Virus record (IMG/VR): IMGVR_UViG_2734482587_000013
DNA from: a virus
Lineage: Duplodnaviria; Heunggongvirae; Uroviricota; Caudoviricetes
Strand: one strand, 5' to 3'
Length of the DNA stretch: 34,061 bases
Below, piece by piece: positions 10,751 to 18,564 of the stretch (within the stretch, counting starts at the first letter, position 1; every line of letters begins with the position of its first letter). The translations under genes were made by a program, and so were the position numbers. A model generated the notes under the pieces. The model was not told where the DNA came from, ran no database searches, and was given only the letters and a program-made list of their open reading frames with translations.

Positions 10751-11241
10751 TCATGAGTCTTTTGAATGAAGTTCAGAAATTCATTGAAGCCCATCCGGGG
10801 TGTACTTCCGGAGACATTGCGGATGCTTTTGCAGGTTACTCACGGCAGCGCGTTCTGCAGTCAGCAAGCAAGTTACGTCAGAGTGGGCGTGTGGCTCACC
10901 GTTGTGAAGGAGATACACGCAGACATTTCCCACGCCTGACTGAGAGAGCGCAGGAGCCGGAACCACAACCAGTTCGTGAAACCAAACCTGTGCGCAATTT
11001 CTATGTCGGCACTAACGATCCCCGGGTGATTTTGTGCCTGACCCGCCAGGCTGAAGAGCTGGAGTCCAGGGGGTTATACCGTCGTGCTGCAACGGTGTGG
11101 ATGGCGGCATTCCGAGAAAGCCACTCCCAGCCAGAACGAAACAATTTTCTGGCACGTCGTGAGCGGTGCTTACGGAAAAGCAGCAAGCGCGCTGCATCGG
11201 GTGAAGAGTGGTATCTGTCAGGGAATTACGTGGGGGCTTAA
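10747..11241 (+). CDS. Putative regulator with PerC-like C-terminal region (tentative)
   Basis: C-terminal segment AEELESRGLYRRAATVWMAAFRESHSQPERNNFLARRERCLRKS resembles PerC/Pch-family activators from memory; ATGA overlap with the upstream gene. Confidence 0.35.
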   Translation: MIMSLLNEVQKFIEAHPGCTSGDIADAFAGYSRQRVLQSASKLRQSGRVAHRCEGDTRRHFPRLTERAQEPEPQPVRETKPVRNFYVGTNDPRVILCLTRQAEELESRGLYRRAATVWMAAFRESHSQPERNNFLARRERCLRKSSKRAASGEEWYLSGNYVGA

Positions 11242-11894
11242 TGAGTAATAAATATTGCCGGGCGCTGGTGGAACTGCGGAACAAACCAGCCCATGAACTG
11301 AAGGAAGTGGGCGATCAGTGGCGCACGCCGGACAACATTTTCTGGGGAATTAACACCCTGTTTGGCCCGTTTGTTCTGGATCTGTTCACCGACGGTGATA
11401 ACGCCAAATGTACCGCGTATTACACGGCGGAAGACAACGCGCTGGCGCATGACTGGTCAGAACGTCTTGCGGAGCTTAAAGGTGCTGCCTTTGGTAATCC
11501 CCCATACAGCCGCGCCAGTCAGCATGAGGGGCAATACATCACCGGCATGCGTTACATCATGAAACATGCCAGTGCCATGCGTGATAAAGGCGGGCGCTAT
11601 GTTTTCCTGATCAAAGCTGCCACCAGCGAAGTGTGGTGGCCGGAAGATGCAGATCATATTGCTTTTATTCGCGGGCGTATTGGTTTTGAACTGCCTGCCT
11701 GGTTTATCCCGAAAGACGAGAAGCAGGTGCCGACAGGCGCTTTCTTCGCTGGTGCTATTGCTGTTTTCGACAAGACCTGGAAGGGACCGGCAATCAGCTA
11801 CATCGGGCGCGATGAACTTGAGGCATGTGGTGAGGCGTTTCTGGCGCAGGTTCGCCAGCAGGCGGAAAAACTGGTCAGGGAGATGGCGGCATGA
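11241..11894 (+). CDS. Phage-type N6-adenine DNA methyltransferase (Dam-like)
   Basis: Catalytic NPPY motif (GNPPYS) plus flanking sequence typical of phage Dam methylases; start ATG overlaps the upstream stop (TAATG). Confidence 0.65.
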   Translation: MSNKYCRALVELRNKPAHELKEVGDQWRTPDNIFWGINTLFGPFVLDLFTDGDNAKCTAYYTAEDNALAHDWSERLAELKGAAFGNPPYSRASQHEGQYITGMRYIMKHASAMRDKGGRYVFLIKAATSEVWWPEDADHIAFIRGRIGFELPAWFIPKDEKQVPTGAFFAGAIAVFDKTWKGPAISYIGRDELEACGEAFLAQVRQQAEKLVREMAA

Positions 11895-12217
11895 CGACGT
11901 TAACTCAATGCCAGCAGCAGGTGCTGGATATGCTGATTTCTTACCAGAAAGAACGTGGCTTCCCGCCAACCAATCAGGAGGTGGCAACCATGCTGGGATA
12001 CCGTTCAGTGAATGCAGCGGTGGAGCATCTTCGCGCACTGGAGAAAAAAGGCGTCATCACGATAAAGCGTGGCGTGGCCCGGGGGATAACGCTTCATACT
12101 GCGATGAAGGACGACGACAGCGAGGCGGTCGGGATTATCCGCTCACTGCTTGCCGGTGAGGAAAACGCCAGGCTGCGTGCAACCCACTGGTTACATGAGA
12201 GGGGCCTGAAAGTATGA
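11891..12217 (+). CDS. LexA-DNA-binding-domain-like small protein
   Basis: N-terminus LTQCQQQVLDMLISYQKERGFPPTNQEVATMLGYRSVNAAVEHLRALEKKGVI resembles the LexA N-terminal winged helix; no peptidase domain. Confidence 0.5.
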   Translation: MTTLTQCQQQVLDMLISYQKERGFPPTNQEVATMLGYRSVNAAVEHLRALEKKGVITIKRGVARGITLHTAMKDDDSEAVGIIRSLLAGEENARLRATHWLHERGLKV

Positions 12218-12630
12218 AGCTGATCTTGCCTTTCCCGCCCAGCGTGAACACGTACTGGCGACACCCCAACAAAGGGGCGTTTGCAGGTAAGAGCCTGATA
12301 AGCGCGGCGGGGCGCAAATTCCAGAGCGCGGCGTGTGCAGCAATAGTTGAGCAGTTACGTCGTCTGCCAAAACCAACGTCGGCACCTGCTTCAGTGGAGA
12401 TCGTGTTGTTTCCTCCGGATAACCGGATCCGCGATCTGGACAACTATAACAAGGCGCTGTTTGACGCCCTGACCCACGCGGGTGTGTGGGAAGACGACAG
12501 TCAGGTGAAAAGAATGCTGGTGGAGTGGGGACCGGTTATGCCGGAAGGGAAGGTCGAGATCACTATCAGTAAGTACGAGAAAACGGCGGGTGCAGCCGCC
12601 AGATCAAGAGGAGAAACGAAGTATGAATAA
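12214..12630 (+). CDS. rusA: RusA-family Holliday junction resolvase
   Basis: N-terminal LPFPPSVNTYWRH and acidic residues DLDNYNKALFDAL are characteristic of RusA; about 138 aa. Confidence 0.75.
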   Translation: MKLILPFPPSVNTYWRHPNKGAFAGKSLISAAGRKFQSAACAAIVEQLRRLPKPTSAPASVEIVLFPPDNRIRDLDNYNKALFDALTHAGVWEDDSQVKRMLVEWGPVMPEGKVEITISKYEKTAGAAARSRGETKYE

Positions 12631-13432
12631 TCTGATGGTCATTGATGGTATTGAAGTTCGTCGTGATGCTTATGGGCGTTACAGTCTGAACGATCTGCAT
12701 CGCGCAGCAGTAGCATCTGGTGCAAATGCCAGAACCAAGGAGCCAGGAAAGTTTCTTTCCAGCCAACAAACTGTTGAGCTTGTTCATGAATTGACCAACA
12801 CCCAGAATTTGGGTGTTGACCCGGTGAGTGTGATTCATGGGGGAAATGAACGGGGAACGTATGTCTGCAAGGAACTGGTGTATGCCTATGCAATGTGGAT
12901 CAGCCCGTCATTCCATCTGAAGGTGATCCGTACTTTCGACATGGTAACCAGCGCACCGGAAAAATTATCCGGACAGGCTGCTGACAAGATGCAGGCTGGT
13001 GTGATTCTGCTGGACTTTATGCGCCGGGAATTAAACCTGTCTAACTCTTCAGTGCTTGGTGCCTGTCAGAAACTCCAGGAGGCTGTTGGCTTACCGAATC
13101 TGGCACCGCGCTATGCCATTGATGCTCCTGCTGACGCGCCTGATGGCTCAAGTCGCCCCACGCTGTCGCTGAGTGCACTGCTGAAACAGTATGGTATCCG
13201 CCTGACGGCTAATCAGGCATATCACCAGATGGTGAAGCTAGGGATCGTTGAACAACGCGAACGATACAGCCGTACCGCGATTAACAACATCAAAAAATTC
13301 TGGTCGCTGACGGCGAAAGGCTGCATGTTCGGCAAGAACATCACCAGTCCCGCAAATCCGCGCGAGACGCAGCCGCATTTCTTCGAATCCCGATTCCCTG
13401 AGCTGTTAAAGTTGCTCGATACCGTTCATTGA
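12623..13432 (+). CDS. KilA-N domain protein with a C-terminal extension (Bro/antirepressor-like architecture)
   Basis: Start at internal ATG 12623 (MNNLMVIDG...); KilA-N features ...YSLNDLHRAA...GTYVCKELVYAYAMWISPSFHLKVIRTF. Confidence 0.55.
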   Translation: MNNLMVIDGIEVRRDAYGRYSLNDLHRAAVASGANARTKEPGKFLSSQQTVELVHELTNTQNLGVDPVSVIHGGNERGTYVCKELVYAYAMWISPSFHLKVIRTFDMVTSAPEKLSGQAADKMQAGVILLDFMRRELNLSNSSVLGACQKLQEAVGLPNLAPRYAIDAPADAPDGSSRPTLSLSALLKQYGIRLTANQAYHQMVKLGIVEQRERYSRTAINNIKKFWSLTAKGCMFGKNITSPANPRETQPHFFESRFPELLKLLDTVH

Positions 13433-13433
13433 G

Positions 13434-14429
13434 GTGACCGTGAGAGCACTACTGACCCCTGAAATTGCCCCGCGTATGGGGATCGTATTGTTCAGGCCAG
13501 GTTCAGAGCTGATGCCCCTGTTTATGCAGGGGCGTGTCCTGCTGGAGCCTGAGCCGGAACGTTATTCATCTTTCGCCAGTGGTGCCGTTCCGGCGGCATC
13601 ACAACCGCTGGCGGATGATCCTGCCGTTCGGGCCGTGTTCCGCAATGAGGCAGTGATCCGTCGTGCTGGTGGCGTGGAATGTCTTGAAAGCTGGTTACTT
13701 CGTGAAAAAGGCTGCCAGTGGCCTCATTCCGACTGGCACAGCGAGAACATGACAACAATGCGACACGCGCCGGGCGCAATCCGTCTGTGCTGGCACTGCG
13801 ATAACCAGCTGCGCGATCAGTTCACGGAACGGCTGGAATCAATGGCAACGGATAACTGTGCCCGCTGGGTGTTGTCTGTTGTGCGTCGGGATCTCGGTTT
13901 TGATGATAGTCACGTTGTGACAATGCCGGAACTGTGCTGGTGGCTGATTCGGAATGACCTGGCGGATGCCTTACCGGAAAGTGCAGCCCGTAAGGCACTG
14001 AGATTACCGAAGCCTGTTGTGCCGTCTGTCACCCGGGAAAGTGACCTTGTGCCTTCGGTTCCTGCCACCAGCATCATCCAGGATAAGGCGAAAAAGGTGC
14101 TGGCGCTGAAAGTGGATCCGGAGTCGCCGGAGTCTTTTATGTTACGCCCAAAACGTCGCCGCTGGGTTAATGAAAAGTACACGCGCTGGGTTAAGACACA
14201 GCCGTGTGCATGTTGTGGAAAGCCCGCTGATGATCCCCACCACCTGATAGGTCACGGTCAGGGTGGAATGGGAACAAAAGCGCATGACCTTTTTGTGTTG
14301 CCTTTGTGCAGAAAGCATCACGACGAGCTGCATGCGGATACCGTGGCATTTGAAGAGAAGTATGGCTCCCAGCTGGAGCTGATATTTCGTTTTATCGATC
14401 GTGCGCTGGCAATTGGCGTGCTGGCCTGA
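13434..14429 (+). CDS. DUF968-family protein with C-terminal HNH-like Cys/His motif (YdfU-like); start codon uncertain
   Basis: C-terminus [43 protein letters not shown]; common position before Q in lambdoid prophages. Confidence 0.55.
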
Positions 14430-14446
14430 TTTTGTGGAGAAAGTTG

Positions 14447-14812
14447 ATGCGTGATATTCAAATGGTTCTTGAACGTTGGGGGGCATGGGTGGCAAATAAT
14501 CACGAGGATGTCACTTGGTCGTCTATTGCTGCAGGATTTAAAGGACTAATCCCTTCAAAAGTAAAATCCCGCCCGCAATGTTGTGACGATGACGCGATGA
14601 TCATTTGTGGATGCATGGCTCGCCTGAAAAAGAACAACAGCGATTTGCACGATTTATTAGTGGATTATTATGTAGGTGGTATGACGTTTATGGCGCTTGC
14701 CCGTAAACATGGGCGTTCTGATTGCTGGGTTGGGCGTTTATTGCAAAAGGCTGAAGGTGTAGTTGATGGCATGTTAATGATGTTAGAAATTGAGCTAGAG
14801 ATGGATCGTTAG
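14447..14812 (+). CDS. Q: Late-gene antiterminator Q (phage 21/82-type family)
   Basis: Internal ATG at 14447 preceded by GGAGA; product [18 protein letters not shown]... with Cys-rich segment [16 protein letters not shown]; located just upstream of the lysis region. Confidence 0.7.
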
Positions 14813-14853
14813 AAGACCTCTTATTGAGAGGGTAATTGAATCAGTTTAATGTG

Positions 14854-14894
14854 TGGGGAGTCGATTTATTCTCCCCATTTTATTTAATTAATTT
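14854..14894 (+). terminator. Intrinsic terminator downstream of Q
   Basis: TGGGGAG-(10 nt loop)-CTCCCCA followed by TTTTATTTAATTAATTT. Confidence 0.5.
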
Positions 14895-14896
14895 AC

Positions 14897-15343
14897 TTAA
14901 GGTTTTAATTCATCAAGACGTTGTTGGATAGTGTTTTTGCTTGCGTTGTCTGTTATAGCCATTTGTTGTACTTGCCCCATTGCCATTTGAGTTTCCATCC
15001 ACATATCGGCCCACACTTTTGTATCGTTATTAACTTGAGCGATAGTAAATCTGACTTTTGATACCGGGGTTGTTGAATAGGCATTGCCGATTAACATTTG
15101 TCCAAAAACAGCAGACCCGCCTTCCAGTTCTTTACCACATATAACACTGCTGTTATCCGCGTTGTAAATTATCAACCCTCTACTATTGCAGTAATTCACA
15201 AGGGCATCTTTGACTTTATCTTTTGTCGTATTTTGATAAACCCCCTCAGGTTTTCCTGATTGAGTTTTCTTTATCAATGGTACGGAAGAAGTACAACCTG
15301 AAATGATAGTTGCGCTAAGTAATAGTACAGTCATTTTATTCAT
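14897..15343 (-). CDS. Lipoprotein of unknown function (moron on the opposite strand between Q and the lysis genes)
   Basis: N-terminus MNKMTVLLLSATIISGCTSS: signal peptide with lipobox ISG|C. AT-rich; opposite orientation to the flanking phage genes. No resemblance to Bor or Cor that I can see. Confidence 0.6.
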   Translation of the reverse strand: MNKMTVLLLSATIISGCTSSVPLIKKTQSGKPEGVYQNTTKDKVKDALVNYCNSRGLIIYNADNSSVICGKELEGGSAVFGQMLIGNAYSTTPVSKVRFTIAQVNNDTKVWADMWMETQMAMGQVQQMAITDNASKNTIQQRLDELKP

Positions 15344-15408
15344 GTTTCTTATCCATTGTTAAGGGCATACCTACACAATTATTTTTATTGGAGATGAATA
15401 ATCAACCG

Positions 15409-15436
15409 TTTACAATCGTAAAAAATCAAATATGCT
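15409..15436 (+). promoter_or_regulatory. Candidate sigma70 promoter (TTTACA-16-TATGCT) about 35 nt upstream of an intrinsic terminator; possible pR'-like late promoter or small-RNA promoter
   Basis: Hexamers read from the sequence; coordinates are by hand and approximate. Confidence 0.3.
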
Positions 15437-15465
15437 GTTAAGAGTGGTTACTTCGCCACACAACT

Positions 15466-15491
15466 TAAACCCGCCGCTGAGCGGTTTTTTT
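15466..15491 (+). terminator. Intrinsic terminator (possible tR'-like) in the Q-to-lysis intergenic island
   Basis: AACCCGCCGC-TGA-GCGG followed by TTTTTTT; no + strand ORF ends nearby. Confidence 0.5.
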
Positions 15492-15613
15492 GTACCTGTA
15501 AACTTGGTGCAGTACAGTAAACACGCTGGTGGTCGTGAATACTGACTTTTTATCTTGCTGGCTTTTTAGACAAGAGTTATTGGTATGTCATGTTAACCAG
15601 AAGGGAAAAAGAC

Positions 15614-15817
15614 ATGCTAAAACAGCAAGATATGACAGAAACCGCCGCCGCAGTCCTTCATTTCTTACCTGCTGACAAGTGGGTAACGCCACGCATGATG
15701 ACGAGAACTACCGGAGTAAGCGAAGCCCGGTGCCAGTTAATACTGACTCAGTTAGTTCTGGCGGGTCTGGCGAAGGATAACGGTGGGTACGGGAATAAAT
15801 TCAGACGCTGCCAGTAA
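15614..15817 (+). CDS. Small hypothetical protein (67 aa from the internal ATG), possibly a small DNA-binding regulator
   Basis: ATG at 15614 preceded by AAGGGA with about 8 nt spacing; lies immediately upstream of the orphan methyltransferase. Confidence 0.4.
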   Translation: MLKQQDMTETAAAVLHFLPADKWVTPRMMTRTTGVSEARCQLILTQLVLAGLAKDNGGYGNKFRRCQ

Positions 15818-15967
15818 TGGCGGTTTCCTGCTGTGAAAATGGGCGGCTGGTGGGTGTTGGTAGCACCTGCCAGCCATTCGCTCATGCTTACTGGTCACAA
15901 GCGAACCACGGCCCACTGCTTTAGCGCAAAAGCAGAGTGAGCCTACCAGAGTTACGCTTACTGATCC

Positions 15968-17020
15968 ATGAAAAATACTGTAAAAATAAACAGTGTTGAT
16001 TTAATCAACGCTGATTGCCTGCATTTTATTCAGTCCCTGCCTGATGATTCCATTGACCTGATTGTTACCGATCCGCCTTACTTCAAGGTGAAACCCAACG
16101 GTTGGGACAATCAGTGGAAAGGGGACGAAGATTACCTTAAGTGGCTGGACCACTGTCTGGCCCAGTTCTGGCGGGTGTTAAAACCTGCCGGAAGCCTTTA
16201 CCTGTTCTGTGGGCATCGTCTGGCATCTGATATTGAGATCATGATGCGTGAACGTTTCAACGTGCTTAACCATATCATCTGGGCGAAGCCGTCCGGACGT
16301 TGGAATGGGTGTAATAAAGAAAGTCTGCGCGCATATTTTCCTGCCACAGAGCGCGTTCTGTTTGCTGAACATTACCAGGGGCCATATCGCGGCAAAAGTG
16401 ACGGCTATGCGGCAAAAGAAAGGGAACTCAAACAGCACATAATGGCACCGCTGATATCGTATTTCAGGGATGCTCGTGCCGAACTGGGTATAACGGCAAA
16501 ACAAATTGCCGAAGCCACAGGTAAGAAAAATATGGTTTCCCACTGGTTTGGTGCCAGTCAGTGGCAGTTGCCGAATGAGGCTGACTATCGGAAGTTACAG
16601 GCACTGTTTTCCCGTATAGCGGCAGAGAAGTTTCAGGAACAACAACTGGAACAACCACACCACCAGCTGGTGGCATCTTATGATTCACTGAATCGCAAAT
16701 ATTCTGAATTGCTGGATGAGTTTAAATCTCTCCGGCGCTATTTCTCCGTATCAGTCTCCGTGCCTTATACCGATGTCTGGATGCATAAACCCGTTCAGTT
16801 CTACCCGGGTAAACATCCGTGTGAGAAACCTGCGGATATGCTCCGGCAAATAATCAATGCCAGTAGTCGACCTGGTGATCTGGTTGCTGATTTTTTTATG
16901 GGATCCGGTTCCACAATAAAAGCAGCAATGGCGCTGGGGCGTCGGGCCTTAGGTGTTGAGCTTGAGTCAGAGCGGTTTAACCAGACAGTGAAAGAGATAA
17001 ACGAGCTGGTGGGGAAATAA
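15968..17020 (+). CDS. Orphan DNA methyltransferase, N6_N4 amino-methyltransferase family (N6-adenine or N4-cytosine)
   Basis: Motif IV DPPYF near the N-terminus and the AdoMet-binding FxGxG motif (DFFMGSGST) near the C-terminus, with a long insertion (about 200 aa) between them. No restriction endonuclease gene adjacent. Confidence 0.8.
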   Translation: MKNTVKINSVDLINADCLHFIQSLPDDSIDLIVTDPPYFKVKPNGWDNQWKGDEDYLKWLDHCLAQFWRVLKPAGSLYLFCGHRLASDIEIMMRERFNVLNHIIWAKPSGRWNGCNKESLRAYFPATERVLFAEHYQGPYRGKSDGYAAKERELKQHIMAPLISYFRDARAELGITAKQIAEATGKKNMVSHWFGASQWQLPNEADYRKLQALFSRIAAEKFQEQQLEQPHHQLVASYDSLNRKYSELLDEFKSLRRYFSVSVSVPYTDVWMHKPVQFYPGKHPCEKPADMLRQIINASSRPGDLVADFFMGSGSTIKAAMALGRRALGVELESERFNQTVKEINELVGK

Positions 17021-17023
17021 TCT

Positions 17024-17051
17024 GGTGGCCACGTAGGTGGCCTTTTTATTT
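17024..17051 (+). terminator. Strong intrinsic terminator after the methyltransferase gene
   Basis: GGCCAC-GTAG-GTGGCC followed by TTTTTATTT. Confidence 0.7.
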
Positions 17052-17086
17052 CCATTACACAGCACCCGCATCTGCGAGGTGGGGTT

Positions 17087-17302
17087 ATGAAATCCATGGA
17101 TAAGTTAACAACGGGTGTCGCCTATGGCACCTCAGCAGGTAGTGCCGGGTACTGGTTTTTACAGTTGCTCGATAAAGTCACGCCCTCACAGTGGGCGGCA
17201 ATAGGTGTGCTGGGTAGTCTGGTATTTGGCTTGCTGACGTATCTGACAAACCTTTATTTCAAGATTAAAGAAGATAAGCGTAAGGCTGCGAGAGGTGAAT
17301 AA
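17087..17302 (+). CDS. S: Phage 21-type pinholin (S21-like), with dual-start motif
   Basis: [71 protein letters not shown] is near-identical in pattern to S21 holin as I recall it (71 aa; M1/M4 starts give antiholin and holin). Confidence 0.85.
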
Positions 17303-17492
17303 TGTCGCCATCATTACGCAAGGCTGTTGCTGCTGCTATTGGTGGTGGGGCTGTTGCCATAGCGTCTGTGCTCATCACTGGTCCGAGTGGTGACGATGGC
17401 CTGGAAGGTGTCAGCTACATACCATACAAAGATATCGTTGGCGTATGGACTGTATGTCACGGACACACCGGAAAAGACATCATGCTAGGTAA
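17302..17492 (+). CDS. R: SAR endolysin (R21-like lysozyme), 3' end lost in the sequence gap
   Basis: N-terminus [59 protein letters not shown]: signal-anchor-release domain followed by the start of the lysozyme catalytic region; runs into the N run at 17493. Confidence 0.8.
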
Positions 17493-17757
17493 NNNNNNNN
17501 NNNNNNNNNNNNNNNNNNNNNNNNNNNNNNNNNNNNNNNNNNNNNNNNNNNNNNNNNNNNNNNNNNNNNNNNNNNNNNNNNNNNNNNNNNNNNNNNNNNN
17601 NNNNNNNNNNNNNNNNNNNNNNNNNNNNNNNNNNNNNNNNNNNNNNNNNNNNNNNNNNNNNNNNNNNNNNNNNNNNNNNNNNNNNNNNNNNNNNNNNNNN
17701 NNNNNNNNNNNNNNNNNNNNNNNNNNNNNNNNNNNNNNNNNNNNNNNNNNNNNNNNN
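17493..17757. other. Assembly gap (265 N); no sequence information
   Basis: Continuous run of n; ORF-track entries across it translate as X and are artefacts. Confidence 0.99.
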
Positions 17758-18180
17758 ATCGTCTGCCTGTCGTGGGCGGTCAATCATTACCGTGATAACG
17801 CCATCGCCTACAAAGAACAGCGTGATAAAAAAGTCAGTGAGCTGAAGCAGGCGACCGCCACCATCGCTGACATGCAGCAGCGTCAGCGTGATGTTGCTGC
17901 GATCGATGCAAAATACACGAAGGAGTTAGCCGATGCGAAAACTGAAAATGAAACTCTGCACGCTGATGTTGCCGCTGGTCGTAAGCGCCTGCGGGTCAAT
18001 GCCAGTTGCTCCGCAGCCGTGCGTGAAGCCACCGGACCCACCAGCATGGATAATGCAACCAGCCCCCGACTGGCAGACACCGCTGAACGGGATTATTTCA
18101 CCCTCAGAGAACGGTTGATGACGATGCAGAAGCAACTGGAAGGGGCGCAGGAATATATCCGCACCCAGCGCATTAAGTAG
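17758..18180 (+). CDS. Rz: Spanin, inner membrane subunit Rz; 5' end lost in the gap
   Basis: ...[61 protein letters not shown]...[27 protein letters not shown] closely parallels lambda Rz as I recall it. Confidence 0.8.
17933..18118 (+). CDS. Rz1: Spanin, outer membrane lipoprotein subunit Rz1, embedded in the +1 frame of Rz
   Basis: [22 protein letters not shown]...[30 protein letters not shown]: lipobox plus Pro-rich region as in lambda Rz1; lies wholly inside Rz. Confidence 0.75.
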
Positions 18181-18201: not shown

Positions 18202-18564
18202 GTGGTTTTTACTGAGCGCGGTGTACACGGTGGAACATATGGCGGGAAGTTTGTTGCTTATGATTATGCAGCATGGCTAAACCCCGGATTTAAATATGCA
18301 GCCTATAAAGTCCTGGATGACTACTTCACCGGAGAACTTCAGCATCGCAACAGCTTAAGTGCGCAGCTCAATATGAAGTGTCATGAGTTTGATCAGAAAA
18401 AAGATATGGCGAGCTTCTGTGGACAAGGGCTGGCGGCATGGCGCTATACGAAGCCAGTGTTGGTCGCTGAGATTAACTCCCTGGCTAACCAGCTGCAGAT
18501 AACGATCCCCGGGCTGTCCGGTATTTGCCGGTATGAAATTACCGGAAGGCGCGGTCGTTACTGA
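18202..18564 (+). pseudogene. KilA-N-like domain fragment, probably a 5'-truncated remnant
   Basis: GTYGGKFVAYDYAAWLNPGFKYAAYKVLDDYF matches only the C-terminal half of a KilA-N domain; ORF begins with GTG directly after Rz with no convincing SD. Confidence 0.35.

Follow-up and report, generated by a model that had tools for sequence, protein, structure and literature searches.

The antiterminator gene Q and the holin gene of a lambda-like Escherichia coli prophage enclose a lipoprotein gene, a small winged-helix gene, and an adenine methyltransferase gene, which probably belong to two unrelated things, one on each side of the late promoter: a slot for opposite-strand cargo, and a late module of the winged-helix and methyltransferase genes behind the promoter PR′ and its terminator tR′. 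We give this account a probability of about 0.7. The prophage is IMG/VR record IMGVR_UViG_2734482587_000013, and its whole stretch of 34,061 nucleotides is referred to as the window. The interval, 14813-17086, extends exactly from the stop of Q (14812) to the start of the phage 21-type holin gene (17087). All three genes were found to be real, with identical ends in RefSeq. The 2.9 kb from Q to the holin gene matches the chromosome of APEC 102026 at 100% identity, and the induced phages PhiR40_1 and PhiR55_1 at 99%. The original prediction, made from the letters of the sequence, had read the interval as a single moron island. The interval and its borders carry the following features:

14447-14812, plus strand: antiterminator Q of the Q21/Q933W family, with the RefSeq start (PF06530, E 2e-51); left border
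14855-14883, plus strand: GC-rich hairpin (14855-14874) followed by a T-rich run (terminator scan; -14.5 kcal/mol)
14897-15343, minus strand: 148-aa outer-membrane-type lipoprotein (ORF, lipobox, phrog_3152, GC 0.380)
15378-15405, minus strand: candidate lipoprotein promoter, TTGATT, 16 nt, AATAAT (promoter scan; a match at only 9 of 12 consensus positions)
15409-15436, plus strand: inferred late promoter PR′, -35 TTTACA, 16 nt, -10 TATGCT (promoter scan)
15443-15492, plus strand: probable late leader of ~50 nt ending in the intrinsic terminator tR′, with its stem at ~15468-15485, then T7 (terminator scan)
15614-15817, plus strand: stand-alone winged-helix protein of 67 aa, with the RefSeq start; first gene after tR′, with at least two alleles
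15968-17020, plus strand: beta-class N6-adenine methyltransferase of the M.EcoGII family, 350 aa (PF01555, E 2e-42)
16070-16081, plus strand: DPPY motif of the methyltransferase
~16445-16678, plus strand: target-recognition domain of the methyltransferase
16895-16909, plus strand: FxGxG motif of the methyltransferase
17027-17051, plus strand: intrinsic terminator closing the module and preceding the holin gene (terminator scan; -12.3 kcal/mol, z -2.4), also marked as a terminator in the SfV and Ayreon records
17087-17302, plus strand: phage 21-type holin S, named essD in RefSeq (PF04971, E 2e-35); right border

The division of the interval was revealed by comparison of the region with cdtI, SfV, Ayreon, and four chromosomal prophages. 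The compared loci share one block, consisting of a terminator, the small ORF, the methyltransferase gene, and a second terminator, and the DNA to the left of this block differs. In SfV and Ayreon, where Q is 250 aa long, the sequence shared with the window begins only at the first terminator (~15468), and the tR′ hairpin was annotated as a terminator by the depositors of both phages. In four loci with a Q of the Q21 family, an invariant 30-nt leader directly precedes the terminator, and a TAnnnT hexamer (TATGCT, TAATCT, TATGCT, TATCGT) is found at a fixed position before the leader, in surrounding sequence that differs. The 25 bp upstream of the hexamer vary with Q: they are similar between loci whose Q proteins share 94% identity, and differ between loci whose Q proteins share 43-49%. 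This Q-type-specific region falls between the two hexamers of PR′. In cdtI, the distance between Q and the opposite-strand cargo is only 23 bp, which leaves no room for a late promoter, and the promoter must therefore lie downstream of the cargo. In the window, late transcription would start near 15443, with tR′ at ~15468-15492; the placement of PR′ and tR′ relies on this conservation together with a match of the promoter to 9 of 12 consensus positions.

The inferred arrangement resembles the Q21-type cassette, which consists of Q, a PR′ with a Q-binding element, a pause site, and tR′. The Q of the window is a member of the same Pfam family as Q21, and it matches 6P18 and 6JNX, both structures of the phage 21 Q, at E 7.5e-9. 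Ahead of the late genes come a promoter-like site, then a short leader, and then an intrinsic terminator. The window differs from the cassette in that its Q has 121 aa, compared to 162 aa for Q21, and in that a cargo gene sits between Q and the promoter. AATC repeats 10 bp apart at 15414-15433 are an unverified lead for a Q-binding site. The leader (15443-15492) has a first hairpin (GUGGU...GCCAC), which is followed by the terminator, and gave no Rfam match. A permissive Rfam scan of 14300-17400 returned only a sub-threshold STnc130 hit, which scored 26 bits where the cut-off is 55 (E 0.56) and was taken as chance. If PR′ is constitutive, the leader RNA would be made continuously in lysogens, as the small RNA StxS of Stx phages is (PMC7547250).

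The winged-helix and methyltransferase module is widely distributed and was found to travel independently of its left-hand neighbours. With at least 80% of its length covered, it is present in 1124 of 5426 complete E. coli genomes, and the type of Q that precedes it varies. P27 and WGPS2, both Stx2 phages, carry this gene pair between Q and the tRNA and stxAB genes, which agrees with the earlier proposal that the junction between Q and the holin gene is a cargo site. The GC content of the module is 0.48-0.51, compared to 0.508 for the window, and the module thus lacks the deviant base composition of a moron. Because it is bounded by terminators and lies downstream of the inferred PR′ and tR′, the module is probably late-operon content, rather than lysogenic-conversion cargo. 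The 150-nt gap between its two genes (15818-15967) has a GC content of 0.56 and contains no clear ribosome-binding site before the methyltransferase start. From 15840 on, it is 98-100% identical in cdtI, Ayreon, SfV, and the chromosomal prophages L015 and L017, all of E. coli type, and 80-88% identical in the Citrobacter phage phiNP; the gap may be a conserved regulatory element.

The gap between Q and the late promoter, on the other hand, is a variable slot for opposite-strand cargo. In the L015 prophage, the slot holds a 483-aa AAA-type ATPase (L015 2136-3587, minus strand), with a hit to HEC-04, a candidate defence model of PADLOC (E 3.9e-47). In L017, WGPS2, and cdtI it holds pairs of unknown ORFs, elsewhere a DUF6731 protein, and some of the compared loci carry no cargo at all. 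The lipoprotein gene is present in 185 of the 5426 genomes, compared to 1124 for the module, and its GC content is 0.38, compared to 0.51; it thus combines presence and absence among genomes with deviant base composition, as is expected of a moron. The original prediction, which had described an AT-rich, swappable gene on the opposite strand, was correct in this respect, and the lipoprotein gene is mobile cargo, the only true swappable cargo in the region. Classic examples of opposite-strand cargo near Q and the lysis genes of lambdoid phages are nmpC in DLP12 and bor in lambda, and the phage lipoproteins Cor and T5 Llp are known to block receptors. The gene studied here resembles these in being a small, AT-rich, opposite-strand gene for an envelope protein that is present in some and absent from other similar prophages. 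A DUF968/HNH gene upstream of Q occupies the same place in the related lambdoid loci examined.

Judged by its sequence, the methyltransferase is a close relative of M.EcoGII. The two proteins align end to end, with about 281 of 349 residues identical (81%) and two gap positions, and identity to the reconstructed ancestor Anc291 is approximately 89%. The alignment is contiguous through residues 160-237, where a four-helix bundle was modelled (Ochiai et al., PMC11551740). Motif IV (DPPY, residues 35-38) precedes motif I (FMGSG, residues 310-314), and the PF01555 model, which has 221 positions, is stretched across residues 29-341 (313 residues). The long spacing on which the original prediction had remarked is thus real, but it is normal for the family: since the 81% alignment to M.EcoGII is contiguous, the supposed insertion corresponds to the ordinary central target-recognition domain of M.EcoGII-type enzymes. 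The two enzymes are also alike in size (350 and 349 aa), in the order of DPPY, target-recognition domain, and FxGxG, and in being prophage-borne. They differ at about one residue in five. In the phage copies closest to M.EcoGII (93% identical; WGPS2 and 1720a-02 among them), the winged-helix gene likewise lies upstream and the location after Q is unchanged, but in the window the module is followed directly by the holin gene, instead of tRNA genes and stx. PADLOC matched the methyltransferase to generic MTase_II models only. No gene for a cognate nuclease lies beside it, the neighbours being Q, the lipoprotein gene, the winged-helix gene, and the holin gene; it is not part of a type II restriction-modification pair and is an orphan, as had been predicted. 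The early/nin region encodes another adenine methyltransferase (11208-11894, plus strand; PF05869, E 1.4e-45), which belongs to the phage Dam family, and the prophage therefore has two methylases.

M.EcoGII methylates adenine regardless of sequence context in DNA, and also methylates RNA in vitro (Murray et al., PMC5778455). All six reconstructed ancestors methylate both DNA and RNA, and M.EcoGII, Anc291, and SUPREM act without motif preference (PMC11551740). Non-specific adenine activity would be expected of the methyltransferase in the window, on the basis of its 81-89% identity to these tested enzymes. In its native lysogen, the prophage-borne M.EcoGII is unexpressed, and its overexpression slows growth (PMC5778455), which makes the epigenetic role in the lysogen that had been suggested unlikely. 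Q-dependent late reading of the module fits this reported silence, and late timing can be inferred from the silence together with the anatomy of the locus. In a lysogen, transcripts would stop at tR′ and the methyltransferase would stay silent. After induction, Q would let RNA polymerase read through tR′ into the small ORF and the methyltransferase gene, which would open the late operon, the enzyme would methylate adenines of the replicating phage DNA in nearly any context, and the methylated progeny DNA would resist many restriction enzymes. The most likely role of the module is thus broad anti-restriction methylation of progeny DNA. Protection from restriction, which the original prediction had also offered, is the role proposed in the literature for the close relative of this enzyme.

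The winged-helix protein is a minimal winged helix, made of three helices followed by a beta-hairpin wing, and an alternative start at 15590 would give a 75-aa form. A PADLOC search with E values up to 0.1 gave no match. Sliding comparison of the window with SfV, L015, or L017 revealed that the body of the gene (~15640-15830) has only 35-70% DNA identity, whereas its flanks, the leader on one side and the intergenic sequence and methyltransferase gene on the other, are 98-100% identical. Because the divergent body sits between nearly identical flanks, the two alleles, which are ~50% identical, are old alleles that have been exchanged within an otherwise identical module. The allele follows neither the Q type nor the methyltransferase variant. 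The N-terminus (MLKQQDMTETA) and helix 3 (RCQLILTQLV) are invariant, and the remainder of the protein is variable.

The lipoprotein begins with the sequence MNKMTVLLLSATIISGC, which comprises a signal peptide and a lipobox (...LLSATIISGC). The lipobox and the Thr at position +2 suggest that the protein is anchored in the outer membrane facing the periplasm. Pfam LPAM_1 matches 8 of 20 family members. Cys17, Cys52, and Cys69 are invariant across 35 homologues, and the protein probably has one disulfide, Cys52-Cys69. The original description of a protein of no recognisable family holds in so far as no match was found in Pfam (E up to 5, the lipobox aside), NCBIfam, or PADLOC (E up to 0.1); it does not hold for PHROG, where the sole match is phrog_3152, labelled as of unknown function (E 1e-104). 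No sequence or family likeness to Bor, Cor, or Llp was detected in Pfam (Lambda_Bor included) or PHROG, a PDB profile search with the family returned nothing meaningful, and literature searches with phrog_3152 and the RefSeq protein accessions returned nothing. The AF2 model (pLDDT 85.8) shows a small alpha+beta fold, which is closest to KA1, DUF3568/Flpp3, and BamC; Foldseek gave no match among BFVD viral structures at E ≤0.001. A UniRef label of a Xenorhabdus homologue, "VirB7 lipoprotein", was set aside, as it had no Pfam or PDB support. The gene is probably expressed in the lysogen from its own promoter, the candidate listed above. It had also been credited with its own terminator. A stable hairpin (14855-14874) does follow its stop, with folding z values of -3.4 on the plus and -3.6 on the minus strand. 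However, the T-run follows on the plus-strand side only, and the element (14855-14883) is therefore probably the terminator of Q, which possibly also ends the lipoprotein mRNA.

Almost all copies of the lipoprotein gene in E. coli (184 of 185) are at least 99% identical, and the isolates come from poultry, pig, dog, and human hosts. Homologues with 57-72% identity are found among tail genes, in a nin region, and beside P1-type DarA genes. Those of Salmonella and Jejubacter lie between the tail genes K and I/J; in Citrobacter and other genomes, the flanking genes are the tape-measure gene and M; in Phytobacter, the homologue is in a nin region; and in Enterobacter, it is beside P1-type DarA and DdrB genes. 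In some phages, relatives lie beside tail-tip genes, where cor-type genes occur. More distant homologues lie beside a portal-like gene or beside a ToxN toxin. The whole family comprises 521 clusters at 50% identity, and some members are fused to PDZ, TPR/YfiO, or SHOCT domains.

The most likely role of the lipoprotein would be to change the cell envelope and thereby exclude other phages, as Cor and Llp do. Envelope-level exclusion is a guess from context, to which we give somewhat less than even odds, and it is favoured because of the company that the gene keeps and its frequent position near receptor-binding genes. It is unlikely, but worth weighing, that the protein instead serves host interaction or fitness, by serum resistance like that conferred by Bor or by protection from envelope stress. 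Like bor, the gene is found close to the lysis genes on the opposite strand, and in L015 bor itself follows the lysis genes; the near-clonality of the gene across hosts and the fusion of distant relatives to envelope domains also point to fitness. However, neither Lambda_Bor nor another Pfam family shows similarity to the protein, its close homologues cluster with tail and receptor-binding genes, and the slot holds a candidate defence gene in other prophages. Apart from these alternatives, several points weigh against the overall account of a cargo slot followed by a late module, or against parts of it. Around PR′, no Q-binding repeats were identified with confidence and no pause element was identified, and the tR′ stem in the window is short (4-5 bp). 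The sequences of M.EcoGII and Anc291 were machine-read from the PDF supplement of PMC11551740, with small reading errors that make the identities approximate, and the breadth of the partly domain-fused lipoprotein family may reflect a general envelope role apart from phage exclusion.

The two genes of the module could also encode a two-subunit enzyme, in which the small protein would redirect the methyltransferase to a particular nucleic acid, such as rRNA or a form of phage DNA. The winged-helix gene directly precedes the methyltransferase gene in all 12 loci inspected, and the invariance of its N-terminus and helix 3 amid variable sequence, as well as the activity of M.EcoGII on RNA in vitro (PMC5778455), would suit a partner of this kind. 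In an unrelated pair from Stx phages, an upstream winged-helix protein, PNB-2, confers 16S rRNA preference on the methylase M.EcoPA8orf6770P, an adenine methylase that is poorly specific alone (PMC10810198). That enzyme, however, is Dam-like, similar to M.EcoGV, and encoded elsewhere in the phage, which makes the comparison one of analogy, not homology. M.EcoGII is fully active alone and was described as independent of other proteins (PMC11551740), and the pairing of ~50%-identical winged-helix alleles with methyltransferase genes that are 98-100% identical in DNA argues against tight co-adaptation. A two-subunit enzyme is accordingly rated as doubtful, below the fitness role of the lipoprotein. 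The small gene was also considered as the PNB-2 gene itself, and this was rejected: gp6/PNB-2 was reported at ~3.3 kb beside the Dam-like methylase, and the small gene maps to the Q-stx region (13-17 kb in Stx-phage records). Equally doubtful is a broader proposal, in which the winged-helix protein, rather than being a transcription factor, would be a partner that restrains the enzyme or steers it, for instance to phage DNA or an RNA, or that binds heavily methylated DNA and shields it from methylation-dependent nucleases, with the alleles as products of an arms race, and in which, as a separate matter, the lipoprotein would be the founding member of a new family of slot-hopping, phage-borne exclusion factors. 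By far the least probable reading is the original one, a single cargo island whose orphan methyltransferase, with its unusual insertion, would target a specific motif and have an epigenetic role in the lysogen. The lack of an adjacent nuclease, the stretching of the 221 Pfam positions over 313 residues, and the RefSeq label "site-specific" on some methyltransferase copies are in its favour. However, no gaps interrupt the alignment of the supposed insertion with the target-recognition domain of M.EcoGII, a conserved terminator in the late leader stands ahead of the gene, and M.EcoGII is silent in the lysogen and harmful when overexpressed (PMC5778455). The small gene and the methyltransferase gene, moreover, form a shared module that outnumbers the lipoprotein gene five- to sixfold.

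Outside the interval, a run of 265 N (17493-17757) masks most of the endolysin gene, and because of this run the ORF list fuses endolysin and Rz into one 292-aa ORF (17302-18180). A 61-aa proline-rich ORF with a lipobox (17933-18118, plus strand) lies out of frame inside the Rz region and, by eye, resembles the Rz1 outer-membrane spanin. A 120-aa ORF that carries an ORF11CD3 domain (18202-18564, plus strand) closely follows the lysis genes and matches phrog_129, as does the central part of a KilA-N protein upstream of Q (12590-13432, plus strand); the ORF is probably a partial duplicate. The early region also encodes a protein with a PerC-like transcriptional activator domain (PF06069; 10747-11241, plus strand), and a 108-aa protein that consists of a LexA DNA-binding domain only (11891-12217, plus strand).

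Most of the region is ordinary, and its one puzzling feature is the exchange of winged-helix alleles. The methyltransferase adds little, as M.EcoGII is sold as a reagent and the family has already been described. What is new is the setting of M.EcoGII-type enzymes: no other long gene comes between the late terminator and theirs, and the small winged-helix gene precedes it in every case. This small gene was not considered in the published work on the enzyme, and it may matter for the behaviour of the enzyme in its native setting. Also new is the identification of the gap between Q and the late promoter in Q21-type prophages as a swappable slot with candidate defence genes and unknown genes, which could be mined. 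A third new point is that the lipoprotein belongs to a sizeable family that has no Pfam entry and recurs on phages and plasmids, and screening it for phage exclusion or envelope effects would be inexpensive.

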